Virus record (IMG/VR): IMGVR_UViG_3300027833_000016 | Strand: one strand, 5' to 3' | DNA from: a virus | Length of the DNA: 64,000 nt | Notes under the pieces: generated by a model | Seen by the model: the letters and a program-made list of their open reading frames with translations, nothing else | What the model was told of the DNA's origin: nothing | The model's database searches: none | Part shown: positions 6,603 to 61,350 of the stretch, in pieces | How positions within the stretch are numbered: the first letter of the stretch is position 1 | How the letters are laid out: the number at the start of each line of letters is the position of its first letter | Program-made: the position numbers and the translations under genes

Positions 6603-9600
6603 ATGTCGAATAATAAGACATTACCGTTAAAGTTAAAAGACAGTGATGGTAATCTCCAACAGATCAGTGCAACGGAGAAGAACTATGTTGCCTACCTTGC
6701 AGGACTACAGAACGCGCAAGCGGATAGTAGTGATGTAGGTCTTCTCACGCTTGCCTCTAGTGGAAACCGAGGAATCGGTTCCACCCTAGACACCTACTAC
6801 CCAGAACCAGTAGGTACGCATCCTTACGACCAAGTTTCGGTAATCAGTAGCACAAAGAACCTGTTCCAGATTAATGGTACGGCAAGCGAAGCAGATAGTG
6901 ACTTCCGTCTACCCATTGCTCATTTCGGGGCGCACGTTTACGAACAACCTGCTTCGAACTTCAATGCCTTTAGTGATGAGATCAATGCTCGTATTGCTCT
7001 ATCGGACTATCCGGGATCTTTAAAGTTATCTCCAACTGCTCCTAGTTCTGACTATAGCATACTAGTACCTTCTGTCCTGTTAGATAAACGTGCCGACTCC
7101 GCAGGTAATGCGATTATCATTAACGATTACTCTATCTGGCGTAGAGATACAATGACTGCACCTAGTGCTATCCTTGATAGTAAAGGTGGCATATCAAGTC
7201 TTGCAGGTATTAAGAGATCCAATGGAGACTCTGGTACATTCCAAGGTATACAGAAATTAACTGACAGGCAGATCCAAGTATCTGTTGGTCAACGCGCAAA
7301 GACTAGACGTGCTATCAGTGGCAACGTTGGTTCATACGAACTTCGTACTGCTTCGCAAGGTGCCCCTGCCACAGGTACTTGGGCATCTAAGGGTACTGCA
7401 ACAAACACTATTCGACTGGTCAATGAAGTTGCGTACACAAGAACTAGTACTCGATCTCGTGGTTCGGCATATGCAAGAACTCGTGTAGGTAACTATACAA
7501 GAAATTCTACTCGTAATGACCCACAGAACTTTGCAGGTAATTATGGAAATACCTATGTAGGTAACTACACCCGAACATTTGCAGGTAACTACACTGGTGA
7601 CTTCACTGGTGACTATACTCGTGACTTTGTAGGTAACTACACTCGTGACTTTGCAGGTAACTATGTTGGTGATTACACTGGTAATTATACTGGCGATTAT
7701 TCTCGTAACTTCACACGCAACCGCGCATCTACGTTTAACCGCACTAGGGCAAGTACTTACGCAGGTAATTATACAGGCAACTATTCCAGAAACTTTGCGC
7801 GTACTCGCGTCTCAAACTATATTCGTGGTCGTGTATCAACCTATCAACGTGGGTTCGCAGGAAACTATACTCGTATAATAGCAGACCAATACGCAGGTAA
7901 CTTCGTTGGTAACTATGCTCGTACTGGTATTGTTTCTAGAATAAGTACCTATACACGAACTCGTATTCAAAATAGAGTATCAAACTACGCTCGTGCTTTC
8001 TTAGGCAACTATGTTGGTGGTTCTGATGGTGGTACTACATATGGTAGCAACACTGCATACGGCAGAACTAGAATCGCTATAAGTACTCGTGACTTCGAAG
8101 GTAACTACGCAAGAAACTTTGAACGTACTCGTGAATCTAACTATGCTCGTAACTTTGCAGGAGAGTATGCAAGAGACTACTTCCGTACATTCGTAGGTAA
8201 CTATGCTCGTGACTTCGCAGGTAACTATATAGGAAACTATGTTGGTGCTGATGGTGGCGGCACTGTTTATGGCACTAACAGAGCATTTGGTCGAACTCGT
8301 ATACAGAACAGAATAAGTACTTACATAGGCAACTATACACAGATTCGTACATCTTCCTATTCAGGTAACTTTACGAGAGGCACTTATTTTATAGGAAACT
8401 ATATTGGAACTGGTTGGCCAACAAGTGAAGTAAATCGATATGTCGGTAACTATAGTGTGGGATATACTCGCATATATGCCGCAAATGCACAAAACTTCCA
8501 AGGTAACTACGCAGGTGATCCATCAAATACTGAGTATGGTGGTTTCTACACTGGTATCGAAAGTACTGCAACATTCACTGGTGACTTTCAGAGAACTAGG
8601 GTGGCACTGGGGGCATTTCATAGGGCATCTAATGTCGGTGATGGAAATTATCTTAGAAATAGTGCCACTGGATACACTAGAACCAAAGCATCTACTATAA
8701 TCTCAGTAAGGGAAAGAGCAAGTACGAATATTTATTATGCCAGAGATGGTTACCCGAAAGGCGGCAATCCGCTATACTATTCTGGTTCAGGTTTCTATAC
8801 AGGTAACTACACAGGCACCGCTAATTTTACTGGCAACTTCCTTAGATTGTTTGTGGGCAACTACGTCCGTACCTTCAATCGAGTATCTAGTCAATCGTTC
8901 AGTAGTGTAACGATTGATACAAGGAACGTAACCTTTACTGGAAACTATCTTGGTAACTATGCTCGTGCCTATGCAGGTACCTATATTGGTAACTATGTAG
9001 GTGCTGATGGTGGTGGCACTGTTTATGGATCTAACACTGCATTTGGTCGAAACAGAAACTCAGGTTACGCAAGAAACTTTGAACGTACTCGTGAATCTAA
9101 CTATGCTCGTAACTTTGAGGGTAATTACTCAAGAGACTTTGCAGGAATACGCAGTAGTTCTTACACAGGAAACTATGTCGGCAACTATGCTCGTACCTTT
9201 GTAGGTGACTATTCTAGAAACTATACGAGAACATTCGTAGGTAATTACACTGGTAACTATCAGAGATTGTTTACTGGTAACTATACAAGAGACTATAACA
9301 GAACTTCTACGCGAACAAGTATCGTTAACAGAACCTCTGCATATAATAGAACTCGTGTATCAAACTATTCTCGTTCTTTCACTGGTGACTACACAAGAAA
9401 CTTTGCAGGTAACTATGCAAGAAACTATTCGGCAGACTATACTAGAATAAGAGCATCATCTTTTTCTAGGACTAGAACTTCTAACTTTACTAGAAACCGT
9501 GGTTCGGCATATGCAGGAGATTACACAAGAACTCGTGTTACTGATTCTGTTGGCGAATATAGTAGAGCATATAGTCGTACCCGAACAAGTAACTACACTA

Positions 9601-9845
9601 GAAACTCTACTAGAGATTCGACCAGAAACCGTGATTCGGCATATGCAAGAACTCGTGGTTCTACTTTTACTAGGTCAAGAACAAGTGCGTATACTGGTGA
9701 CTTCACTGGAGATTACACAAGAAACTTCGAAGGTAACTACTCACGGAACTTTGCAGGTAATTATGTCGGTAACTATGTTGGACAGACTATCGGTAATAGT
9801 ATATTCAACGTGGAGACTTATACCTTATATGTAAGAACTGCATAG
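6603..9845 (+). CDS. Self-complementary repeat protein A (predicted giant beta-hairpin virion fibre)
   Basis: About 278-aa N-terminal domain paralogous to the 9899 gene; xGNY/xRxR/xRxF/xSxY tetrapeptide array; C-terminal ETYTLYVRTA; late promoter at 6500. Confidence 0.8.
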   Translation: MSNNKTLPLKLKDSDGNLQQISATEKNYVAYLAGLQNAQADSSDVGLLTLASSGNRGIGSTLDTYYPEPVGTHPYDQVSVISSTKNLFQINGTASEADSDFRLPIAHFGAHVYEQPASNFNAFSDEINARIALSDYPGSLKLSPTAPSSDYSILVPSVLLDKRADSAGNAIIINDYSIWRRDTMTAPSAILDSKGGISSLAGIKRSNGDSGTFQGIQKLTDRQIQVSVGQRAKTRRAISGNVGSYELRTASQGAPATGTWASKGTATNTIRLVNEVAYTRTSTRSRGSAYARTRVGNYTRNSTRNDPQNFAGNYGNTYVGNYTRTFAGNYTGDFTGDYTRDFVGNYTRDFAGNYVGDYTGNYTGDYSRNFTRNRASTFNRTRASTYAGNYTGNYSRNFARTRVSNYIRGRVSTYQRGFAGNYTRIIADQYAGNFVGNYARTGIVSRISTYTRTRIQNRVSNYARAFLGNYVGGSDGGTTYGSNTAYGRTRIAISTRDFEGNYARNFERTRESNYARNFAGEYARDYFRTFVGNYARDFAGNYIGNYVGADGGGTVYGTNRAFGRTRIQNRISTYIGNYTQIRTSSYSGNFTRGTYFIGNYIGTGWPTSEVNRYVGNYSVGYTRIYAANAQNFQGNYAGDPSNTEYGGFYTGIESTATFTGDFQRTRVALGAFHRASNVGDGNYLRNSATGYTRTKASTIISVRERASTNIYYARDGYPKGGNPLYYSGSGFYTGNYTGTANFTGNFLRLFVGNYVRTFNRVSSQSFSSVTIDTRNVTFTGNYLGNYARAYAGTYIGNYVGADGGGTVYGSNTAFGRNRNSGYARNFERTRESNYARNFEGNYSRDFAGIRSSSYTGNYVGNYARTFVGDYSRNYTRTFVGNYTGNYQRLFTGNYTRDYNRTSTRTSIVNRTSAYNRTRVSNYSRSFTGDYTRNFAGNYARNYSADYTRIRASSFSRTRTSNFTRNRGSAYAGDYTRTRVTDSVGEYSRAYSRTRTSNYTRNSTRDSTRNRDSAYARTRGSTFTRSRTSAYTGDFTGDYTRNFEGNYSRNFAGNYVGNYVGQTIGNSIFNVETYTLYVRTA
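7437..9776 (+). repeat. Coding 12-nt-unit repeat array of protein A
   Basis: Many ggtaacta(c/t) and actcgt units in 4-codon register. Confidence 0.9.
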
Positions 9846-9854
9846 TATAATTCT

Positions 9855-9862
9855 TATAAATA
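9855..9862 (+). promoter_or_regulatory. gp55 late promoter
   Basis: Intergenic TATAAATA upstream of 9899. Confidence 0.85.
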
Positions 9863-9898: not shown

Positions 9899-12800
9899 GT
9901 GGCAAAGTCGAACATACCGCTAAAGGCAGAAGGAACAAATGGTGATCTGAAGGAGTTAACTCCTACGGAAGAGCATTACCTCGCCTATCAAGCAGGACTG
10001 CAATTAGCGGCAGGTACCACAGACGCAGGTACTCTACATAAAACTACTGGTACCACTATCGGTACGTTCGTTGATACTTACTACAATGAGGCAGACGGCA
10101 CACACCCTGCCTCTGCCATAACTTCTGGTAGTACATCTACTCCCCTAAAGCAAATACAAGGTACTGCTAACTACACTGGTGCGAACTATCGCAGACCAGT
10201 AGGGTATCTGAACAGTGGTGCCGAAGGTCTATATGAATTCCCCGACTCTGATATGTCTATTCTTACGACTAGACTTAATGCTCGTATTGCTCTATCAGAT
10301 TATCCCGGAACATATAAACTAGGAACCTCTGCTCCGTCAAGTGACTATAGTGCCTTACTGTCAAACGTATACACCGATACATTAGGTAACGGAACAAGCA
10401 CAGTATACAACATCTACAAACGAAATACAATGTCTGCCCCCTCAACTATCAGACCTATGGGTTTGGTTGGTTCTGATTCGGCAGGGTCGTTTAGTGGTAT
10501 TCGTGAACTAAATGATAACGAGATCAAGCATACGTTTGGTCAACACGCCAAGACAGAACGTGCAGTAGTAGGTAACATTGGTTCTTATCAGTTAAGATCT
10601 GCTACCCAAGGTGTTCCTTCTGCTTCTGGTACATGGGCGGCAAAGGGTACTGCTACTAATACAAAGAGAACAACTTCGGAAGTTGCGTACACAAGAACTC
10701 GCGCATCCGCATATACTCGTACTCGTGGTTCTGCTTATGCAAGAACTCGTACTTCGGCATACACAAGAAATTCTCTTCAGACCTTTACTGGTACTTACGC
10801 AGGTGACTTTGTAGGTAACTACACTCGTGCCTTTGCAGGTAACTATGCAAGAAACTTTGCAGGAAACTACGTTGGAGACTTCATTGGTAACTATCAACGT
10901 ACTCGTGTGTCTCAGTACACAACTAATTTCACAGACGTATTTACTAGAAACTTCGTAGGCAACTATCAGCGTATTCGAGTATCAAATTATACTCGTGACC
11001 GTATTACTGTATTTACTGGTAACTTCATAGGAAACTATGTTCGTACTCGTATCTCTGCATATGCTAGAACAAGTACTCGAACAAGAAATAGTAACTACAT
11101 TAGAACTCGAACCTCTGCATACACGACTGTCTTTGCAGGTAACTATGTTGGAGACTTTGTAGGCAACTACTCACGAACTCGTGTGTCTGGTTACTCTGGT
11201 GCTTACACTAGAATAAGAAACTCTGCCTATATTAGAACTCGTACTTCAACATATACGCGTGATCGTGTTACAAACTTTACTGGTGACTTCATTGGTAACT
11301 ACTCAAGGACTCGTAGTTCTGCATATATCCGTGATAGACTAGTAACCTTTACTGGTGACTATGTTGGTAACTATAGCAGAACATTCGTAGGCAACTATGC
11401 CCGAACGTTTGTTGGTAACTATGCTCGTGCCTTTGCAGGTAACTATGTTGGCAACTATGCGAGGATCTCAACAAGAACTCGCGCATCCAACTACACTGGT
11501 AACTACAGTAGATCATTTGCAGGAAATTACATAGGCAACTATGCTCGTGCCTTTGCAGGGGACTACATAGGCAACTACAGTAGAACTTTCGTAGGTGACT
11601 TCATTGGTAACTTTACTGGCAACTATGCTCGTGGGTTTGCAGGAAATTACATAGGCAACTATGCTCGTGGATTTACTGGTGATTTCATTGGTAACTTCAC
11701 TGGCAACTATGCTCGTGGGTTTGCAGGTGACTATGTTGGTAACTATGCTCGTGGATTCTTAGGCAACTATGGTCGTACCAGATACTCTGCATACATTCGA
11801 AACAGTACTAGAATCTCTACTCGTATTCTTAACTATACCAGAATATCGACTCGTACCTCTACTCGCATTCTAGACTATCAGCGTACATCCACAAGAACTA
11901 GCACACCTACCGAAACGTACACACGAATTGGTTACTATGCAGGTGACTTCATTGGTAACTATACGCGTATCAGTACAAACACTGGTACCTATATTCGTAT
12001 CAGAACTGCGACAGGAACGTACACAAGAGATCGTACTGCTACAGGAACATACATTAGAATTCGTATTCCTACTAGCACAAACACTGGAACGTACACACGA
12101 AACCGTATTGCCGCATACCTTGGTAACTATAATAGACTCCGAATTGCTATCAGTACAAACACTGGTACATATATTAGAACTCGTATTGCCTCATACATTG
12201 GTAACTACGGAAGACTTCGTATTGCAATCAGTACAAACACTGGTACTTATATCCGTATCCGTACTGCCGCGTACCTTGGTAACTATACTCGTACATTATA
12301 CTACGCAGGTAACTTCGCAGGTAACTACACTCGTACTCTATACTATACTGGTAACTATACTCGTACCTTATACTATATCGGTAACTTCACTGGTAACTAT
12401 ACTCGTACATTGTATTACACAGGTAACTATACTCGTACTCTTTATTACATTGGTAACTACACTGGTAACTACACGAGAAACCTTGCATACCTTGGTAACT
12501 ATGCCAGAACTCGCACCGCTACTGGCACATACATTAGAATTCGCACCGCTACTGGCACATACATTAGAATTCGTACTATTATTGGTACATACATTCGTAC
12601 CTCGACCAGATCACGTCTTTCGCAACCGTCATACACAAGAACATCGACTCGTACTTCTACTCGCAGTGTTGCATATACGCGAATAGGGGGTAAAGGTGGT
12701 ACTACCACTTTTTACTACATTGGTACTGGTTACTACGCAGGTAACTTCACTGGTAACTACGCAAGAAACCTATACTACGCAGGTAACTTCACTGGTAACT

Positions 12801-14773
12801 ATGCCAGAACATTGTACTACACTGGTAACTATACCAGAACATTGTACTACACTGGTAACTATGCCAGAACATTGTATTACATTGGTAACTATTCTCGTAA
12901 CCGTATTGCTATTGGCACATACATTAGAATTCGTGTTCCTACTCGCACCGCTACTGGTACTTACATTAGAATCCGTGCCGCTACTGGTACATACATTCGT
13001 ATACGACTAACCAACCGTATTGCTACTGGCACATACATTAGAATTCGTACTGCGACTGGTACATACATTCGTACCTCTACAAGAACTAGTACTCCTACAG
13101 GAACTTATACTAGGAACCGTATTGGTTCGTACACAGGTAACTATACTCGTACATTGTATTATACTGGTAACTATACTGGAGATTACTCTAGAAACCGTAT
13201 TGGTTCATATGCAGGTAACTATCAGCGTACTTTATATTATACTGGTAATTATCTTGGTAACTATACTAGAAACCGTATTGCCGCATACCTTGGTAACTAT
13301 CAGCGTACTCTGTATTATATCGGAAACTATACTGGTAATTACACTAGAACATTGTACTATATCGGAAACTATACCCGAACTCTATATTACACTGGTAACT
13401 ATCAGCGTACCTTATATTATACTGGTGACTACACTAGAAACTCTACTCGTACCTCTACTCGTATCCTTGGGTACACTAGAATCGGTTCATACGCAGGTGA
13501 CTTCGTAGGTAACTATACGCGTATTGGTTTCTATGCAGGTAACTATACTGGTGACTATGTTCGAACAGGATACTATACTGGTGACTTTATAGGTAACTAT
13601 GCTCGTGCGTTTGTTGGTGACTATTCACGGAATCGTATATCTACCTATAATAGAACATCAACACGGAATCGTATCTCGACTTACATTAGAACTCGTGTTA
13701 CTAACTATACTCGTAACCGTATCTCGACTTATACTCGCGACTCAACTCGTAACCGTATCTCTACTTATATTAGAACTCGTGTTACTAACTATACTCGTAA
13801 CCGTATCTCTGCGTATGCAAGAACCAGTACGCGTAGTCGTATCTCTGCATATGCTAGGACTAGTACTCGTGCAAGATCTTCTGCTTATATTAGAATCCGT
13901 GCGTCAACCTTTGCAGGTAACTATACTGGCGAATATTTAAGAACCTCGACTCGTACTCGTAACAGTTCTTATATCCGTAACCGCATATCAACCTACACTA
14001 GAAACCGTGTGTCTGCATATGCTCGTACTCGTATCACAGATTATGTTGCAAACTATGTCGGCAACTACTCACGAACGTTTGTGGGAGAGTACACGCGTAA
14101 CAGTATTCAAGTCTTTGCAGGTAACTTCGTAGGCAACTATGCAAGAAACTTTGTGGGTAACTATTCTCGTTCATTCGAAGGTAACTACACAGGAACATAC
14201 AGTAGGAACTTTGCAGGAGAATACACAAGAACTCGTGTTACTGATTCTGTTGGCGAATACACAGGAAACTTTACTCGTAACTTCGTAGGTGACTATACTC
14301 GTAACTTCGCAGGAGATTACGTTGGAAACTACACTCGTGGGTTTGTCGGAGAATATACTCGTGACAGTATAGCAACCTTTGCAGGTAACTTTGTCGGTAA
14401 CTACTCAAGAGACTTTGCAGGAGAGTATGCAAGAACTCGTGTAAGTAACTACACTGGGGACTTCGTTGGTAACTTCACTAGAAACTTCGTTGGAGAATAT
14501 AGCAGAAACTCAGTAAGAACTTCAACACGAACTCGTGCATCTACTTTCACTCGTAGTCGTATCTCTGCGTATGCAAGAACATCCACAAGAGTTAGTGCTG
14601 ATGATTTCGTAGGAGATTTCACAGGAAACTTTACTCGCGACTTCGCAGGTAACTATTCTAGAGCGTTTACAGGTAATTATAGTAGGAACTTCGCAGGTAA
14701 CTATGTTGGTACTACAGTTAATTCAGGAACAGAAGTAATAGAGACGTATACATTGTATGTAAGAGTCGCATAA
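9899..14773 (+). CDS. Self-complementary repeat protein B (predicted giant beta-hairpin virion fibre)
   Basis: GTG start; late promoter at 9855; shares an N-terminal domain (ARIALSDYPG, GSYxLR, GTWAxKGTATNT) with the 6603 gene; 1338-aa repeat array; C-terminal ETYTLYVRVA. Confidence 0.85.
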   Translation: MAKSNIPLKAEGTNGDLKELTPTEEHYLAYQAGLQLAAGTTDAGTLHKTTGTTIGTFVDTYYNEADGTHPASAITSGSTSTPLKQIQGTANYTGANYRRPVGYLNSGAEGLYEFPDSDMSILTTRLNARIALSDYPGTYKLGTSAPSSDYSALLSNVYTDTLGNGTSTVYNIYKRNTMSAPSTIRPMGLVGSDSAGSFSGIRELNDNEIKHTFGQHAKTERAVVGNIGSYQLRSATQGVPSASGTWAAKGTATNTKRTTSEVAYTRTRASAYTRTRGSAYARTRTSAYTRNSLQTFTGTYAGDFVGNYTRAFAGNYARNFAGNYVGDFIGNYQRTRVSQYTTNFTDVFTRNFVGNYQRIRVSNYTRDRITVFTGNFIGNYVRTRISAYARTSTRTRNSNYIRTRTSAYTTVFAGNYVGDFVGNYSRTRVSGYSGAYTRIRNSAYIRTRTSTYTRDRVTNFTGDFIGNYSRTRSSAYIRDRLVTFTGDYVGNYSRTFVGNYARTFVGNYARAFAGNYVGNYARISTRTRASNYTGNYSRSFAGNYIGNYARAFAGDYIGNYSRTFVGDFIGNFTGNYARGFAGNYIGNYARGFTGDFIGNFTGNYARGFAGDYVGNYARGFLGNYGRTRYSAYIRNSTRISTRILNYTRISTRTSTRILDYQRTSTRTSTPTETYTRIGYYAGDFIGNYTRISTNTGTYIRIRTATGTYTRDRTATGTYIRIRIPTSTNTGTYTRNRIAAYLGNYNRLRIAISTNTGTYIRTRIASYIGNYGRLRIAISTNTGTYIRIRTAAYLGNYTRTLYYAGNFAGNYTRTLYYTGNYTRTLYYIGNFTGNYTRTLYYTGNYTRTLYYIGNYTGNYTRNLAYLGNYARTRTATGTYIRIRTATGTYIRIRTIIGTYIRTSTRSRLSQPSYTRTSTRTSTRSVAYTRIGGKGGTTTFYYIGTGYYAGNFTGNYARNLYYAGNFTGNYARTLYYTGNYTRTLYYTGNYARTLYYIGNYSRNRIAIGTYIRIRVPTRTATGTYIRIRAATGTYIRIRLTNRIATGTYIRIRTATGTYIRTSTRTSTPTGTYTRNRIGSYTGNYTRTLYYTGNYTGDYSRNRIGSYAGNYQRTLYYTGNYLGNYTRNRIAAYLGNYQRTLYYIGNYTGNYTRTLYYIGNYTRTLYYTGNYQRTLYYTGDYTRNSTRTSTRILGYTRIGSYAGDFVGNYTRIGFYAGNYTGDYVRTGYYTGDFIGNYARAFVGDYSRNRISTYNRTSTRNRISTYIRTRVTNYTRNRISTYTRDSTRNRISTYIRTRVTNYTRNRISAYARTSTRSRISAYARTSTRARSSAYIRIRASTFAGNYTGEYLRTSTRTRNSSYIRNRISTYTRNRVSAYARTRITDYVANYVGNYSRTFVGEYTRNSIQVFAGNFVGNYARNFVGNYSRSFEGNYTGTYSRNFAGEYTRTRVTDSVGEYTGNFTRNFVGDYTRNFAGDYVGNYTRGFVGEYTRDSIATFAGNFVGNYSRDFAGEYARTRVSNYTGDFVGNFTRNFVGEYSRNSVRTSTRTRASTFTRSRISAYARTSTRVSADDFVGDFTGNFTRDFAGNYSRAFTGNYSRNFAGNYVGTTVNSGTEVIETYTLYVRVA
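10691..14704 (+). repeat. Coding 12/18-nt-unit repeat array of protein B (two 1986-nt arms around a 42-nt tip)
   Basis: Arms 10691-12676 and 12719-14704; 134 tetrapeptides and 21 hexapeptides each. Confidence 0.9.
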
Positions 14774-14840: not shown

Positions 14841-15305
14841 ATGAGTTATAAAAGATGGATGGATAATGCATTCTGGGAAGATGATACTAAAGAGAAGTTG
14901 AATTGTATCCTAGAGATAATGGATGACGTGGAACGCGAGACACGACAAGTAATGTTGTTGCAACGCACTAACAAAGACGGAACGCCAAACGAACTGTTCA
15001 ATGAAGTTATTGATGATCTAGGTGTAGAGTCGGTTGATCGAAACACCGAAGACCGTAAGGTACGCAAGGCGGCAGAGAAGGAAGAAGGTCAACAAAGAGA
15101 TGTTGAGTTTGCTCGTGCGCGGAAGTTGGAAGAACTGTTCAACTACAAGTTGGAGATCTTTGAGACCGAAGAGATTAAGAACTCTAAGAATCGTAAACTC
15201 AAAGGTAAGTTGAGACGCGCCAAGTCTAAGATTGAAGTAAACTTATATGCAATGATGTTGTTGCAAGAGGTTCTTGAACCAACGGAAGTAGTTGCTGATG
15301 AGTGA
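14841..15305 (+). CDS. Hypothetical acidic/basic helical protein
   Basis: GGAG RBS; sigma70-type promoter at 14779; first gene of a 3-gene operon. Confidence 0.75.
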   Translation: MSYKRWMDNAFWEDDTKEKLNCILEIMDDVERETRQVMLLQRTNKDGTPNELFNEVIDDLGVESVDRNTEDRKVRKAAEKEEGQQRDVEFARARKLEELFNYKLEIFETEEIKNSKNRKLKGKLRRAKSKIEVNLYAMMLLQEVLEPTEVVADE

Positions 15306-16035
15306 TAAGACTGAAGGATATGTACTGGTTGCATCCAATAAGATTAACTTCTATAGGTATGCAATCAATCTAGCAGAGTCTATCTTAGACTTCTATCCTG
15401 ATGCCAAGATTACTTTGTTCTGCGAAGAATGGATGTTCGAAGAACTTCATCGTGATCTCTTTGATAATGTTGAATGGTGTACTGGACACTACCGTGCCAA
15501 GTTAGAAGGTATGGCAAGATCTCCTTATGACCTAACCATGTACCTTGATGTTGATATGGAAGTAGAACACGAAGACATTAGTACTTGTTTCCAAATCTTG
15601 AGAGATAGCGAACACGATATGTTGTTCTCTGCATTGACCGATGATAGATCATATGTCTATGCTGAACGAGACTTTGACACCCCCGAAGGTAAGGCAAAGT
15701 TTACTCTATGTGGTGGTATATGTTTGTATGATATGACAGTACCTATCATCAAAGAGTTTGTTGCAGAATGGGAAGACTTGACCAAGAGACAAATGGATAA
15801 GGAATGGTGGCCAGAAGGTTACATCGATTCCCTGAAGTCTTGGGATCAGTTCTCTCTATGGTGGTTGACAGAGAAGGAAGATAAGTACAAAGATTTAAAC
15901 TATGGCATCATCTATGATGATCTGCGATGGAACTATTACAACGCTTTTAATTGGCATAAGACCAAACCAGAGTCAGGGCCAGTTATTGTACGGCACTACT
16001 CGTGCGGATTAGATAAGGACGGACACATATTATGA
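15298..16035 (+). CDS. GT-A fold glycosyltransferase-like protein
   Basis: SPYDLTMYLDVD (DxD), GGICLY, WDQFSL, VRHY; ATG at 15298 preferred over TTG at 15292. Confidence 0.7.
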   Translation: MSDKTEGYVLVASNKINFYRYAINLAESILDFYPDAKITLFCEEWMFEELHRDLFDNVEWCTGHYRAKLEGMARSPYDLTMYLDVDMEVEHEDISTCFQILRDSEHDMLFSALTDDRSYVYAERDFDTPEGKAKFTLCGGICLYDMTVPIIKEFVAEWEDLTKRQMDKEWWPEGYIDSLKSWDQFSLWWLTEKEDKYKDLNYGIIYDDLRWNYYNAFNWHKTKPESGPVIVRHYSCGLDKDGHIL

Positions 16036-16727
16036 GTTATATGCAAGACATACCAATTAAAAACAGAGAACTGTTGCAGAGATTAGACGCATACAGAGAC
16101 TTTCTCTTGGATGATAAAGAACAGTTCCAGAAGGACTTCCATCTTTCGTGTTCACAAGAGGCAAGTCAACGTCACTTCTGGGCAGGTAAAGATCATCTAG
16201 AAGAGATCCAAGCACAGGGAAGCAGACACGAAGGTTTCCCCGATAAGATGTATGGATATGAGATGAGTATTGGTCGCAAAGACCATGAGTTCTTTGAGGG
16301 AGACACCCATCCATCTATACGAACTAAACGAACGGCAGACATTGCCTTTATGAACAAAGATATTATGCAATGGTTGGGCACTCGTTGTAATGCTCTTACT
16401 GCATGGTATCCTCCCGGTGGTTTCATCTCTTGGCACAACAATGCTAACGCGGCCGCATACAATCTAATATTCTCATGGTCTGAAACTGGAGACGGACAAT
16501 TTGAGTATGTAGATCCTGTATCGAAAGAAATTGTCGTTATGAAGGATAAGCAGGGTTGGAACTGTAAGGCGGCATACTTTGGTCACTATGGTGAACCAGA
16601 GAACCTATTCTATCATGCGGCAAAGACCGACTGTTGGAGATGCACAGTATCATTCACATTTGATATCTCACAAGCATCTGTAGACTACAGAGACGATTTA
16701 ATAGAAGAAATCACCTCAGAAATCTAA
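16032..16727 (+). CDS. 2OG-Fe(II) oxygenase-like (DSBH) protein
   Basis: YPPGGFISWHNN...FYHAA...R motif pattern; paralogue of the 36720 gene. Confidence 0.65.
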   Translation: MSYMQDIPIKNRELLQRLDAYRDFLLDDKEQFQKDFHLSCSQEASQRHFWAGKDHLEEIQAQGSRHEGFPDKMYGYEMSIGRKDHEFFEGDTHPSIRTKRTADIAFMNKDIMQWLGTRCNALTAWYPPGGFISWHNNANAAAYNLIFSWSETGDGQFEYVDPVSKEIVVMKDKQGWNCKAAYFGHYGEPENLFYHAAKTDCWRCTVSFTFDISQASVDYRDDLIEEITSEI

Positions 16728-45832: not shown

Positions 45833-45849
45833 CCTTGTTGGAGGAATAT

Positions 45850-46383
45850 ATGTTTAAGAATTACATACCAGACGTTGTATTCCATCTTCGTGAACCTGAT
45901 CTATCTGCGACAATGGATGTCGCTAACCCATTCAAGTGGGTTCGTAAGACTACTGCTGAATTGATGGGAGGTAAGAAGGTATTGATCTTTGGACTTCCCG
46001 GTGCATTCACACCGACTTGTTCCAACGAACAGTTGCCGTCTTATGAAGAGATGTATGAAGAGTTCATGGAACTAGGTATCGATGAGATCTATTGTACCTC
46101 TGTTAACGATGCGTTTGCTATGTTCCAATGGGCAAAGCAACTAGGCATTATGAACGTCAAGATGTTACCAGACGGTAACGGAGAGTTTGCAGATGGACTT
46201 GGGTATCTTGTAAATAAGAACAACCTTGGTTTCGGTAAACGCTCATGGAGATATGCGTTGATCGTAGAAGATCTAAGCATTGAGCGATGGTTTGAGGAAG
46301 AGGGTATCAGTGAGAACTGTCCGTCAGATCCATACATGACCTCAAGACCCGAAGTGGTATTGGATGCCCTTCGAGGCAACTAA
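45850..46383 (+). CDS. Peroxiredoxin (Prx5/redoxin family)
   Basis: PGAFTPTCS, VNDAF, DGNGEF, RSWRY; GAGGA RBS before ATG 45850. Confidence 0.93.
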   Translation: MFKNYIPDVVFHLREPDLSATMDVANPFKWVRKTTAELMGGKKVLIFGLPGAFTPTCSNEQLPSYEEMYEEFMELGIDEIYCTSVNDAFAMFQWAKQLGIMNVKMLPDGNGEFADGLGYLVNKNNLGFGKRSWRYALIVEDLSIERWFEEEGISENCPSDPYMTSRPEVVLDALRGN

Positions 46384-47770: not shown

Positions 47771-48162
47771 TGTATCAAGATGACGTAGAATTATTTATGA
47801 AACAAGGGTTGCAGGACTACCCAGTAGTATCGTGTTTGGATGTCCCTACAATAACAGATGATGTTGACCCACAGATCGAACTGTATATGGACTTGATCAC
47901 CGAAGAGTACCACGAGTTGCAAGAAGCATATAAGGAACAAGATGTTGTTGAAGTTGCAGACGCACTTGCAGACATGGTGTGGGTGATCATGGGAATGGCA
48001 TCAACTCTAGGTATGGACTTCAATGACATCTGGGAAGAAGTCAAGCGTTCTAATATGTCTAAGTTCACTAACAACATTATCATCCGTGATGGTAAGACTG
48101 GTAAGATCCTCAAACCATCTACCTTCAGTGAACCTGATCTGGCACCTATCCTTGGTCTCTAA
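47770..48162 (+). CDS. MazG-like all-alpha NTP pyrophosphatase
   Basis: LITEEYHEL, EVADALADM, VKRSNMSK, GKILKP. Confidence 0.85.
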   Translation: MYQDDVELFMKQGLQDYPVVSCLDVPTITDDVDPQIELYMDLITEEYHELQEAYKEQDVVEVADALADMVWVIMGMASTLGMDFNDIWEEVKRSNMSKFTNNIIIRDGKTGKILKPSTFSEPDLAPILGL

Positions 48163-49228
48163 GATATCACACTCGCCTGTACAACAGGACGAGATAACCA
48201 AGTCACTATCCGAGGCATTCGAATATGCCTTTGATGGTGTCTCTGAGTTTACCGTTCCTGATATGCCTAACATATGTGGATCCTTTAACATAGGACTCAT
48301 AGTCGGGCCATCTGGTTCGGGCAAGTCTACATTGCTCAAGAGGTTTGGTGAAGAGAAGTTTCCAGAGTGGGTGGCAGATAAATGCATTGCCTCTCATTTT
48401 GATAACGAGGATGATGCAACTACATTGATGGGTGCGGTTGGACTCAACTCAGTTCCTACATGGTTTAGACCTTATCATGTATTGTCTGTTGGTGAGCAAT
48501 ACCGTGCTAACCTTTCGCGTAGACTAGTGAATGATGCAGTGATCGATGAGTTCACTTCGGTGGTCAATAGATCGGTTGCCAAGTCATGTGCTAATTCGGT
48601 TGCCAAACATATTCGTAGAGAAGGTATTAAGAACGTGGTCTTCTCTTCTTGTCACTATGACATCGAAGAATGGTTACAACCCGATTGGGTATTTGATACT
48701 GCGACAGGTGAACTCACCTATAGGGGGTCACTTCATCGACCAATTAGGAGACCCGAAATCAAGTTGGACATTGTTCCATGTGGGGTCGAAGCGTGGACAG
48801 CGTTCAAAGACCATCATTATTTAACACAAGATATAAACAGTTCTGCCAAACATTGGTTATGTTGGTGGGGAGATACAGTAGTAGGGTTTGCTTCTGCCAT
48901 ACCGTTCCCCAGTGGAACAGTTAAGAATGCATTCCGAGGACACAGGACAGTAGTTCTACCTGACTACCAAGGATTAGGTATTGGTGTTAGACTCAGTGAT
49001 GCTATCGCAGAGTTGCACCGCGAAGAAGGTAAGAGATACTTTAGCAAGACTGCCCATCCTCGTATGGGTAAGTATAGGAATGAGTCTAGTCTTTGGAAAC
49101 CGACTAGTAAGAATATGAGTGAGAGGGCAGACATACCCTCTGACAACCTTGAAGACAGGAAGTGGATAGCACGAAAGTGCTTCTCCTACTCACATGAGTA
49201 TATTGGCAATGTATCAACAACAACTTAA
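48023..49228 (+). CDS. ABC-type ATPase fused to a GNAT acetyltransferase
   Basis: GPSGSGKS, LSVGEQYR, IDEFTS; C-terminal HHYL and RTVVLPDYQGLGIG; true start probably 48128 or 48152. Confidence 0.82.
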   Translation: MTSGKKSSVLICLSSLTTLSSVMVRLVRSSNHLPSVNLIWHLSLVSKISHSPVQQDEITKSLSEAFEYAFDGVSEFTVPDMPNICGSFNIGLIVGPSGSGKSTLLKRFGEEKFPEWVADKCIASHFDNEDDATTLMGAVGLNSVPTWFRPYHVLSVGEQYRANLSRRLVNDAVIDEFTSVVNRSVAKSCANSVAKHIRREGIKNVVFSSCHYDIEEWLQPDWVFDTATGELTYRGSLHRPIRRPEIKLDIVPCGVEAWTAFKDHHYLTQDINSSAKHWLCWWGDTVVGFASAIPFPSGTVKNAFRGHRTVVLPDYQGLGIGVRLSDAIAELHREEGKRYFSKTAHPRMGKYRNESSLWKPTSKNMSERADIPSDNLEDRKWIARKCFSYSHEYIGNVSTTT

Positions 49229-58448: not shown

Positions 58449-59396
58449 ATGATTAAATACGAACTAACAATATTTCAGTCTCAGTTTGACAACAAGACTC
58501 ATCGCAAGGTTGCTGTACAATCTTGGGGTGAGTTCGTGGGTCTGCTAGAAGGACTGTCTAGGAACAAAGGTGAGAAAGGTGGTAGAAATTCTAGTCCTCT
58601 TATTACTCCTGCTGTGTTTACCACTGGTACCACGCGTAGTAATGCTAATACTTTACGTTGGGGTGGTTGGTGCGCTGTTGACGTGGATCAGCATGATTTT
58701 GATACTGATGTTGAGGTATTAAAGAATGAACTCATTGATAGATTTCGCGATGTGGACTTCGTGTGTTACAGTACTGCTTCTTCTAGGGATACACACCTTA
58801 AATTTCGTCTGGTCTTCAGACTTGATGAGACTGTTGAAACTGATAGAATCAAACCCTTCTGGTTCGCATTTAATACTGCCATTGGCGAACTTGGTGATCC
58901 ACAGACAAAGGATCTTGCTCGAATGTACTACATACCTGCAATATACCCTGATGCTAATAATTTCTTCTTTAGTCACTTGGGGGGCAGTCCAGTTAATGTA
59001 TCTGAGGTGATTGCTAAGTATCCTTATGTGGAGAAGACTGGCAACTCATTCTTTGATCGGATGCCACCAGAGATGCAGAAGCAGGTAATAGAGCATCGTA
59101 AGAATGGACTAAATAATACTGACTTCAATTGGAACTCATACAGAGATTGTCCATTCTGGCCTAAACGATTAGGCATTGAGTACCAAACGATTAGCGGTGA
59201 GGGATGGTACTATAAGATGTATCAGATCATGGTCGCGGTTGCAGGTAGTGCGGTGTCTCGTGGATACCCTATCTCTGCTACACAGATTGCTGATCTCTGC
59301 AAAGAGTTTGACAATGAAACAGGTAAGTGGTACGAGAATCGTCCTCTCGCAAGAGAAGCAGATCGTGCCCTAGAATACGTCTACAGGAACGGATAA
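58449..59396 (+). CDS. Primase-polymerase-like (AEP/VirE-N type) protein
   Basis: AVDVD, YSTASS, KFRLVF, DPQTKDLARMYY; helical C-terminal domain. Confidence 0.65.
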   Translation: MIKYELTIFQSQFDNKTHRKVAVQSWGEFVGLLEGLSRNKGEKGGRNSSPLITPAVFTTGTTRSNANTLRWGGWCAVDVDQHDFDTDVEVLKNELIDRFRDVDFVCYSTASSRDTHLKFRLVFRLDETVETDRIKPFWFAFNTAIGELGDPQTKDLARMYYIPAIYPDANNFFFSHLGGSPVNVSEVIAKYPYVEKTGNSFFDRMPPEMQKQVIEHRKNGLNNTDFNWNSYRDCPFWPKRLGIEYQTISGEGWYYKMYQIMVAVAGSAVSRGYPISATQIADLCKEFDNETGKWYENRPLAREADRALEYVYRNG

Positions 59397-60337
59397 TGAA
59401 AATACTAGTAACAGGTGCGGCAGGATTTATTGGATCACAATTGACCGCACGTCTTCGTGATCAAGGTTATACAGTCAAAGGATTAGACAACTACAACAAC
59501 CATCTATACGAACCAGACCTCAAAGTCAAACGTGTTGATCACTTCGATATCGATGTGGTGCCATGTGACTTGAGGATGATTCCCGGTTCGGGGATTGCTC
59601 TGGATAAGTTGTTGATAGACTTTGCACCTACTCATATCATTCACCTTGGGGCACACGCAGGTGTTCGTGACTCGTTCGGTAAAGAGAAGCAGTACCACGC
59701 GAACAACATTGATGCTACCCAAAACCTCATTGATATATGTAAGGAACATTTACCAGACGTGCGTATCATCTATGCGTCAACCTCATGTGTCTATGCAGGT
59801 AGTGAACTACCGTGGACAGAGGGTAGGGAGACAGGTAAGCAGTTGAACCCATATGGTTGGACTAAGTGGTCTAACGAATGTCAGATGCAGGGATCAGGAC
59901 TCAATACAACTGGTCTAAGATTCTTCACAGTGTATGGCCCTTGGGGCAGACCCGACATGGCATTGTTTGACTTCACAAAGAATATACTTGCAGGTAACAT
60001 GATAACCGTGTATAATTATGGTAATATGAGGCGCGACTTTACCTACATTGATGATATCCTTGGTGGTATTGAATGCGTTCTATTTGCTGATTTACCGGCA
60101 GGTGAGATCTTTAACATTGGACGAGGACAACCAGTTGAACTTATGGACTTCGTTAGAGAGATCGAGAAGAACACTGGATGCGAAGCAAAGATCAACTATG
60201 TTCCACAACATCCTGCTGATACGTTAGAGACTTGGAGTAACTCCAGTAAACTAATGGCACTAGGTTACACCCCCACGACTAGCATTGCGGAAGGTGTGGC
60301 AAACTTTTATGAATGGTATAAAGAGTACATGAACTAA
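59396..60337 (+). CDS. NAD-dependent epimerase (UDP-glucuronate 4-epimerase-like)
   Basis: VTGAAGFIG, AHAGVR, YGWTK, RFFTVYGPWGRPDMA; start at 59396. Confidence 0.88.
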   Translation: MKILVTGAAGFIGSQLTARLRDQGYTVKGLDNYNNHLYEPDLKVKRVDHFDIDVVPCDLRMIPGSGIALDKLLIDFAPTHIIHLGAHAGVRDSFGKEKQYHANNIDATQNLIDICKEHLPDVRIIYASTSCVYAGSELPWTEGRETGKQLNPYGWTKWSNECQMQGSGLNTTGLRFFTVYGPWGRPDMALFDFTKNILAGNMITVYNYGNMRRDFTYIDDILGGIECVLFADLPAGEIFNIGRGQPVELMDFVREIEKNTGCEAKINYVPQHPADTLETWSNSSKLMALGYTPTTSIAEGVANFYEWYKEYMN

Positions 60338-61350
60338 TGGCAGATGATTTTGATAAGTACGCACCTGTTAAACCAGATGTGAATGAAGCACCACCAACAT
60401 CGATCAGCAAGACCAACAAACTCAAGGTGGGTATTGTTGGTCATGGTTTCGTTGGTAAGGCAGTAGAGTATGCATTCTACCACGACTTGATAGAGTTCGT
60501 TATTGTAGATCCAAACTATGGCACGACTATTGATGACTTGGTTAAGGCACAACCTACCATCTCATTCATCACCGCACCAACACCACAGAACTCCGACACT
60601 GGATTCGTGGATGCGTCTATCGTAGAAGATGCGGTACTGAAGTTGATGAACCATACTGACTCACTTGTTATTGTGAAATCAACAGTAACACCTGATATCA
60701 TTGATCGGTTGTACAACTCTATACCCGAAGGATCCTTTGATAGGTTCGCATACAATCCTGAGTTCCTGACTGAGAAGTCTGCCAACGAAGACTTTGTTAA
60801 TGCCGAACATCATGTGGTTGGTGGAACACCTGCCGCGTGTAAGGATGTCATGGACTTCTATGAGTTCTTCAGTGGATGTAAGTCTACAAAGTTCTACCAG
60901 ATGTCAGGGCCAGAGGCATCGTTCGTGAAGTACGCGTCCAATGCATACCTCGCAACCAAGTTGACCTTCTTCAATCAGTTGAAGGATCTGGTCAGTTCAT
61001 TTGATTGTAGTTACAATGTGGTGTCTCGTGCATTAGGTGCGGATGATCGTATCGGTATCAAGCACACCAGAGTACCGGGCCCTGATAAGAAGAAGGGGTT
61101 TGGTGGTGCGTGTCTACCCAAAGACACAATGGCATTATACAAGTTTAGTCAGGCAAGAGGGGCAGAGTTCAGTTTGTTAAATAATGTCTTGACAATCAAC
61201 AACAAATACCGTATAATGTATGACTTAGATGATAGAGAATTAGTAAATAATATAACGTTCGGAGAGAATGATAATGAGTATAATGGACAAAATGAAGAAG
61301 AACAGCAAGATCAAGACAACGGAAGTACTGTCGAAGTCGGTGTTCTATAA
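60337..61350 (+). CDS. ugd: UDP-glucose/GDP-mannose dehydrogenase family protein
   Basis: GHGFVG, KSTV, NPEFL, KYASNAYLA, GFGGACLPKD. Confidence 0.85.
   Translation: MADDFDKYAPVKPDVNEAPPTSISKTNKLKVGIVGHGFVGKAVEYAFYHDLIEFVIVDPNYGTTIDDLVKAQPTISFITAPTPQNSDTGFVDASIVEDAVLKLMNHTDSLVIVKSTVTPDIIDRLYNSIPEGSFDRFAYNPEFLTEKSANEDFVNAEHHVVGGTPAACKDVMDFYEFFSGCKSTKFYQMSGPEASFVKYASNAYLATKLTFFNQLKDLVSSFDCSYNVVSRALGADDRIGIKHTRVPGPDKKKGFGGACLPKDTMALYKFSQARGAEFSLLNNVLTINNKYRIMYDLDDRELVNNITFGENDNEYNGQNEEEQQDQDNGSTVEVGVL
61189..61217 (+). promoter_or_regulatory. sigma70-type early promoter (uvsX), inside ugd
   Basis: TTGACA-N17-TATAAT. Confidence 0.75.

Follow-up and report, generated by a model that had tools for sequence, protein, structure and literature searches.

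What kind of structure is encoded by a phage gene most of whose product consists of modules of four and six residues? The question is raised by the gene for protein B in IMG/VR virus record IMGVR_UViG_3300027833_000016, of which the whole stretch of 64,000 nucleotides (nt) analysed here is called the window. The initial annotation of this locus had proposed that two arms of protein B pair module by module around a short tip, as the strands of a stem do, so that the chain would fold back on itself. The best explanation of the evidence as a whole, and one in which considerable confidence can be placed, is that protein B is a late-expressed fibre of an uncultured marine T4-like phage with a single fold-back paired stalk.

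The arms were parsed into modules by one criterion, in which a module is taken as a 4-mer where its fourth residue is Y, F, R, or S and as a 6-mer otherwise. This mechanical parse gives 155 modules per arm, with the same split between tetramers and hexamers as had been counted before. Arm 1 was then reversed and set against arm 2 without gaps, and the module order was shuffled 20,000 times as the null model. The length class agrees in 155 of the 155 module pairs (shuffles 118.7±2.9, maximum 131) and 133 of the pairs are complementary, compared to 36.0±4.8 in the shuffles (maximum 56). The mutual information between facing modules is 1.74 bits, as opposed to 0.13±0.03 when shuffled.

The three pairing rules that had been described for these arms all hold. 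Each of the 89 modules ending in R or S is opposite xGx(Y/F), each of the 26 xRxF modules is opposite x(S/T/A..)x(Y/F), and each of the 21 hexamers is opposite a hexamer, with xRxxxY facing a non-R hexamer in 18 of these 21 pairs. There are no RS:RS or RF:RF pairs at all among the 155. The 22 pairs that fall outside the rules are mainly small-Y:G or small-Y:small-Y, and "every" is therefore true for these three rules only. Each module class is present in similar numbers on arm 1 and arm 2. The comparison with shuffled and shifted registers, which had been suggested as a check, gives no other antiparallel register above 0.43 complementary, where the true register has 0.86, and the scan of shifts thus bears out a unique register at the level of the modules. 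Parallel registers spanning most of the arms reach no more than ~0.41 complementary, with identical classes at no more than 0.52 over short overlaps. Nor is the DNA an inverted repeat, as had been noted: when arm 1 is compared with arm 2 in reverse complement, identity is 31% at offset 0 and 37% at best, and the inverted repeats detected amount to four, all short and imperfect.

The two arms are equal in length at 662 amino acids (aa), or 1986 nt, and the arms and the 14 aa tip were re-derived at coordinates identical to those first given (Table 1). Since the tip is itself made up of a hexamer, GG, and a hexamer, the symmetry carries on to G933/G934 (nt 12695–12700), and the sum i+j of paired residues, at 1866–1867, puts the turn within GGKGG. 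In the orthologue of a near-identical phage, here G001, the tip differs in sequence while its length class is unchanged. The paired stalk already takes in the final strand of the N-terminal domain (aa ~243–264).

Table 1. Features of protein B and its surroundings (window coordinates; partner coordinates of the tandem arrays were computed from i+j=1867)
Feature	Coordinates	Strand	Basis or remark
Protein A, 1080 aa, tandem paralogue of protein B	6603..9845	+	Same N-domain, C-terminal motif ETYTLYVRTA, complementary outer arms
T4-type late promoter motif TATAAATA	9855..9862	+	37 nt 5' of protein B start codon
Protein B gene, 1624 aa, GTG start, stop included	9899..14773	+	Single open reading frame; N-terminus aligns with homologues from residue 1–7
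Conserved N-terminal anchor domain, aa 1–264	9899..10690	+	340 clusters at E<=1e-3; homologue model pLDDT >90
Arm 1 (outgoing), aa 265–926, 134 tetramers and 21 hexamers	10691..12676	+	Module parse
84-nt tandem array, arm 1	11534..11757	+	Opposes 13658–13846
78-nt tandem array, arm 1	12077..12287	+	Opposes 13105–13349
30-nt tandem array, arm 1	12506..12595	+	Opposes 12786–12892
Tip, aa 927–940, hexamer TRIGGK, GG, hexamer TTTFYY	12677..12718	+	Symmetry sum i+j=1866–1867
Arm 2 (returning), aa 941–1602, 134 tetramers and 21 hexamers	12719..14704	+	Complementary to arm 1 reversed
30-nt tandem array, arm 2	12786..12892	+	Opposes 12506–12595
78-nt tandem array, arm 2	13105..13349	+	Opposes 12077–12287
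84-nt tandem array, arm 2	13658..13846	+	Opposes 11534–11757
Conserved C-terminal tail, 22 aa, ends ETYTLYVRVA	14705..14770	+	Motif in 67 complete homologues; model pLDDT 95–97

That the arms change in concert can be seen in G001, whose protein is 2101 aa long, with an N-domain 98% identical to that of protein B and blocks that are 88–99% identical in a global alignment. The G001 protein is the longer at two places on each arm (protein B numbering). It gains 92 aa behind aa 469 as well as behind aa 1384; a further 32 aa follow aa 530, and 262 aa follow aa 1334, this last insert being 32 aa of modules and a globular domain of 230 aa. Under i+j=1867 the partner of 530/531 is 1336/1337. The insertions, 2.6 kb apart, are at partner sites exactly for the 32 aa pair and ~13 residues off for the 92 aa pair. 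The G001 arms are thus 776 aa and 776+230 aa, with 155 of 185 pairs complementary. By analogy, these matched insertions would be the protein counterpart of compensatory base changes. Within protein B, the tandem arrays that oppose one another on the two arms have equal periods and unrelated DNA sequences.

The family was defined from the N-domain (aa 1–264), for which phmmer gives 340 clusters (50% identity) at E<=1e-3, with 159 of them reaching E<=1e-30. Nearly all of the clusters come from metagenomes of marine origin, TARA included. The only phage-collection record among them is Phage C48C1, whose N-domain is 43.8% identical; it is filed under Kyanoviridae, a label that comes from this record only. 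The C-terminal motif (E/D/N)TYTLYVR(V/I)(A/S) ends 67 complete members, from 422 aa upward, and the C48C1 copy as well.

Residue-level antidiagonal scans, with either a 20x20 or an 8-class log-odds matrix, missed even the true diagonal, the former because pseudocount artefacts dominated and the latter because opposite residues carry little information in the module-aligned register. Pairing was scored instead by a module-level Smith-Waterman comparison and by register-resolved mutual information. Equal complementary arms are present in distant homologues with N-domains ~40% identical, including P0081 (arms 181/180 aa; score 61.9, shuffle 9.7), P0003 (161/160 aa; 47.6, 7.6), P0066 (218/211 aa; 42.4, 9.7), P0064 (209/209 aa; 34.2, 6.4), and P0097 (158/156 aa; 30.6, 8.7). 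The arms of these homologues start within ~10–40 aa of the N-domain, end within 0–30 aa of the C-terminal tail, and enclose a globular centre of 225–630 aa. The co-variation of arm lengths, proposed as a check on the hairpin, is seen in part of the family: 29 of 63 homologues have pairing at z>=4 and the best stem of 19 of the 29 is symmetric about the N-domain and the tail, whereas the others resemble local stem-loops.

The C48C1 homologue (3347 aa) has four nested stems, 268–331:3261–3324, 340–411:3054–3125, 532–831:2129–2404, and 865–1264:1401–1800, the innermost of which has a score of 138 compared to 13 for the shuffle. Non-repeat, apparently globular segments are at its tip and form bulges on its returning arm. 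Together, the paired indels, the matched arrays, the nested stems, and the end-anchored arms of the homologues support the original suggestion that the chain folds back and that its arms pair. Protein A, immediately 5' of protein B, also has a stem, 283–534:815–1046, with 40 of 56 pairs complementary (score 21, shuffle 11.6), and the copy of protein A in G001 is 48% identical to the protein B N-domain. The middle of protein A has three near-identical Gly-rich inserts of 12 aa and non-repeat stretches, which would suggest that its stalk is interrupted or branched.

It had also been proposed that the C-terminal strand returns to the N-terminal domain. The AlphaFold2 target used here was a natural short member of the family, P0120 (476 aa, 19 module pairs, 47-sequence alignment). 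In the resulting model the predicted local distance difference test (pLDDT) is >90 for the N-domain and 79–97 for the last ~30 residues, with the C-terminal 20 at 95–97. The only long strands in the model are 240–270 and 442–474, and as there are no others these two would be paired with one another. The model thus supports closure of the base, with the C-terminal tail predicted to pair with the last strand of the N-domain. No match to the P0120 model was found in the PDB with Foldseek at E<=1e-3. Its N-domain has its best matches in VIA-align (Z 5.8–7.3, inside the noise band of the tool) to the MABP/beta-prism-like C-terminal domains of MACPF/perforin-like proteins, and a weak match to T4 gp11 (Z 2.7 over 49 residues). 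Since all of the structural matches are within noise, the N-domain fold may be new.

At the level of single residues the register is given as the sum i+j, with the module-aligned register at 1867. The residue mutual information is 1.21 at i+j=1866, 1.18 at 1868, and 1.00 at 1867, over a background of ~0.75, and the minus-one offset is best in all five proteins (protein B, C48C1, P0081, P0003, and P0064). Within the 89 R/S:G pairs there is residual covariation of x3:y1 (z=10.8) and x1:y3 (z=6.5), positions that face each other directly only at 1866, and it is seen again when 87 pairs are pooled from four homologues (z=6.6 and 4.3). At 1866 the pairs on the even face are G:R (102), Y:Y (52), F:R (33), R:S (26), R:Y (24), and S:Y (21), while the odd face has N, T, I, A, V, D, and S together with 15 Thr:Tyr pairs from hexamers. 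The cross-strand Arg:Gly, Arg:Phe/Tyr, Ser:Arg, and large:small pairs that had been predicted do therefore appear when this register is used. From the sequence, the code may most simply be read as two rungs, with Arg at position 2 opposite Gly or Ser, and an aromatic at position 4 opposite Arg, Ser, or another aromatic. A test for anticorrelation of side-chain volumes did not make any single register stand out. As a speculation, in a six-stranded tube of three chains the peaks at 1866 and 1868 could stem from neighbouring arms of one chain and of adjacent chains.

In the proposed architecture, residues ~243–932 would run outward, the chain would reverse in GGKGG, and residues ~935–1624 would return antiparallel and in register; as arm 2 runs back in register, the C-terminus would end on the N-domain. 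Both arms would be strictly alternating beta-type sequence of even-length modules, with the even positions of both on one face as knobs into holes. One Arg would face Gly or Ser at position 2, and Tyr or Phe would face Arg, Ser, or Tyr at position 4, leaving the odd positions (Thr, Ala, Val, Ile, Asn, Asp) on the opposite face. Because the module order is aperiodic and hexamers must meet hexamers, only one register would fit. Facing modules would most simply be complementary in the size and charge of side chains that share a face of the beta ribbon. Such a stalk could lengthen or shorten by matched insertions or duplications on both arms, and in relatives it carries globular domains, either at its tip or bulging from the arm that runs back. 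The arms (aa 265–1602) have no His, Cys, Met, or Trp, and the stalk is 17% Thr, 14% Arg, and 13.5% Tyr, with an isoelectric point (pI) of 10.5 and 192 Arg+Lys to 43 Asp+Glu (net charge ~+149). If extended, 668 pairs at 0.33–0.34 nm per residue are calculated to span 220–227 nm, while a tilted six-stranded tube would by our own estimate be shorter, at ~175 nm.

The late promoter that the initial annotation had noted is the motif TATAAATA, which is present 14 times in the window, in every case on the + strand, where 3.7±1.7 would be expected. The sites include 3638, 6500, 9855, 16756, 28134, and 36196, as would fit control of the entire structural block by late promoters of the T4 type. As had been stated, protein B is among tail genes: 5' of it are large baseplate-region proteins, in the gene order of T4, and 3' of it, again in T4 order, are a head-closure (neck) protein, tail-sheath stabiliser, large terminase, sheath, portal, scaffold, and major capsid protein. 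After the capsid block there are helicase, SbcCD-like nuclease, clamp loader, DNA polymerase, and UvsX. As the neighbours keep the T4 order, the position of protein B would be that of the gp9–gp12/wac interval, which in T4 also encodes the whiskers.

The most likely role of the family is that of a host-surface adhesion fibre, given the jelly roll resembling a carbohydrate-binding module (CBM) in relatives, the late expression, and the position in the tail module. The lateral insert in G001 (L005 9327–10112, aa 1458–1719) has the 230 aa domain bulging from the returning arm. AlphaFold2 models this domain as a jelly roll (pLDDT 78.6, predicted template modelling score (pTM) 0.80), and Foldseek has 35 PDB matches to it at E<=1e-3, with CBM16, CBM4-2, and CBM22 at the top (target template modelling score ~0.6, E~1e-4) and phage fibre and baseplate chains among the weaker matches. 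There is no Pfam match for the domain. Its homologues of 40–58% identity are in LamG_3-carrying proteins and in prepilin-type (N_methyl) proteins of Candidatus Saccharibacteria, which suggests, from sequence likeness, one adhesin module common to marine phage fibres and to the type IV pilins of candidate-phyla-radiation (CPR) bacteria. A related domain is present in C48C1 at aa ~1800–2050. The C48C1 record also annotates fibre-assembly chaperones adjoining its homologue.

Several observations weigh against this account. The stem of P0120, residues 272–446, is modelled by AlphaFold2 at pLDDT ~30 and without secondary structure. When scored with the Arg-based module classes, 34 of the 63 homologues have no significant pairing, and many members of the family are written in an Arg-poor dialect that is outside the scored classes. 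At the level of residues 1866 is no more than the favoured register, 1868 being nearly as informative, and part of the covariation stems from the module grammar within each arm rather than from contact. The beta conformation, the assignment of faces, and the oligomeric state draw on sequence statistics and on analogy, and protein B itself has no globular binding domain.

A first rival, on the structural side, is a monomeric two-stranded beta ribbon ~220 nm long, with both faces in solvent. Two strands are enough to account for the complementarity, and the centre of the tip fits a tight Gly turn. A lone ribbon of 668 pairs would, however, bury very little surface, and one of its faces is nearly all small or aliphatic, as if packed against something; phage fibres are, besides, usually trimers (PMC12143355, PMC6957217). 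Nor did AlphaFold2 or ESMFold2 stabilise the stem on its own, the latter giving, for three copies of aa 844–1023 without an alignment, a score of 0.00 and, for the fold of each, pLDDT <50, a result that is neutral as to trimerisation. A free ribbon accordingly seems unlikely. By analogy with the needle of T4 gp37, a six-stranded tube of three chains, lined by the small residues and exposing Arg and Tyr on its exterior, is put forward tentatively, at somewhat poorer than even chances. Such a tube would bring each arm 1 into contact with two arm 2 strands, and this could explain both the 1866 and the 1868 peaks, which would also be in keeping with pairing between chains, arm 1 running antiparallel to arm 2 of another subunit in a domain swap or head-to-tail polymer with the tip as linker. 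Complementarity by itself fits intra-chain and inter-chain neighbours alike. That the centre of symmetry is exactly on GGKGG, that the stems of homologues are nested and anchored at the N-domain and tail of the same chain, and that the AlphaFold2 monomer has the C-terminal strand on its own N-domain with high confidence, all make the inter-chain arrangement rather improbable.

It could also be argued that the mirror pattern has no structural meaning and is a by-product of how the repeats arose, through an ancient inverted duplication or biased repeat turnover, given that tandem DNA repeats, which readily expand, make up both arms. The lack of an inverted repeat in the DNA and the fact that partners are complementary and not identical both contradict this, as does the sharing of period and not of sequence by the opposed arrays. 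Independent insertions of equal length have been made at partner sites 2.6 kb apart in an orthologue that is otherwise 88–99% identical, and the same rule recurs in homologues with N-domains only ~40% identical, so that such an origin is very improbable indeed. A different kind of rival accepts the stalk as real and gives it another use, as a whisker, a decoration of the neck, a scaffold for assembly or for tail length, or a rod binding polyanions. The strongly basic composition, the lack of a globular tip, and the whiskers of the corresponding T4 interval would suit this well enough. It is nevertheless regarded as a minority possibility, since the stalks of relatives display globular domains (jelly-roll, CBM-like, and others) on their ends or sides, in the manner of receptor-binding fibres, and since fibre-assembly chaperones are annotated beside the C48C1 copy.

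Neither protein B nor protein A has a match in Pfam or PHROGs, there is no Pfam match for the central inserts of four homologues or for the C48C1 bulge domains, and protein B has no sequence match among PDB chains at E<=1. A literature search found no description of the family or of its code, in agreement with the earlier remark that no described phage protein with such a code was known.

The closest known design is the needle of T4 gp37 (domains D10–D11, PDB 2XGF), reportedly the subject of Bartual et al. in 2010. In both, a T4-type phage makes a protein whose chain goes to a tip and comes back, with segments from the N-terminal and C-terminal sides building the proximal domain, a likeness that for protein B is one of topology and comes from the P0120 model. 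The gp37 needle is an elongated antiparallel beta structure in which small residues and glycines are critical in the stem. It has ~60 residue pairs, where protein B with ~668 is about ten times longer, and it has His-coordinated iron sites, while protein B is without His in aa 265–1602. The modular 4/6 code and matched indels of protein B are not known from gp37. No sequence similarity to gp37, gp12, gp10, or gp11 was detected (PDB chains at E<=1, Pfam, PHROG). Domain D10 of gp37 is made of residues 811–881 plus 1010–1026, between which the chain travels to the tip and back, with seven iron ions holding the trimeric needle together (PMC6957217).

In principle, though not by homology, the arms are also like the stem-loops of RNA and DNA, having complementary antiparallel arms, one register, compensatory change, and nested stems with bulges and loops. 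The units in protein B are, however, peptide modules of four or six residues, and the "loops" are folded domains. Triple beta-helix and beta-solenoid segments, such as the C-terminal beta-helix of T4 gp5 and the gp12 shaft, also build long rigid phage fibres from short repeats rich in Gly, Thr, Asn, and aromatics. Their repeats stack in parallel and are alike, whereas the signal in protein B is antiparallel about a single centre; a parallel beta-helix fibre is ruled out by this signal, the best long parallel shift being ~0.41 complementary. Beta-ribbon rods, among them the central sheet of Borrelia OspA and the E-G5 repeats of staphylococcal SasG, resemble the stalk in being extended beta structures with little or no conventional hydrophobic core that act as stiff spacers. 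They are made of short strands (tens of residues) or of many small tandem domains, and have no global hairpin or register code.

We rate the architecture of protein B as new, and its functional class, that of the phage fibres, as ordinary. On balance it also seems probable that the family has a genetically encoded strand-pairing code, in which modules of four and six residues fix a unique antiparallel register over hundreds of residues, in the chain alone or in a trimer, with compensatory insertions like those of RNA stems, nested stems with binding domains as loops or bulges, and rigid fibres of 100–270 nm that are adjustable module by module. If this is so, it would be a new architectural principle, an aperiodic and register-setting complementarity between two beta strands over ~670 residue pairs that is kept by compensatory evolution. 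It would explain the very long fibres and the swapping of binding domains in abundant uncultured marine T4-like phages, would provide a natural test bed for the rules of cross-strand pairing, and could be a template in protein design for rods of programmable length.

Directly 3' of the protein B gene there are three small overlapping open reading frames (ORFs; 154, 247, and 231 aa) at window 14841–16727, none of which has a Pfam match at E<=0.01 or a PHROG match at E<=1e-3. The C48C1 homologue is likewise trailed by three ORFs of nearly equal sizes (L002 10250–12130), the likeness being one of size only. These small ORFs are candidate fibre maturation or chaperone genes.

Elsewhere in the window, adjoining UvsX at 59327–61350, are an NAD-dependent epimerase/dehydratase (GDP-mannose 4,6-dehydratase-like) and a UDP-glucose/GDP-mannose dehydrogenase, sugar-nucleotide genes that possibly modify the host surface, the DNA, or the virion. 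A redoxin/AhpC-type peroxiredoxin (45835–46383) and a GNAT acetyltransferase-domain protein (48023–49228) are present amid the replication genes.

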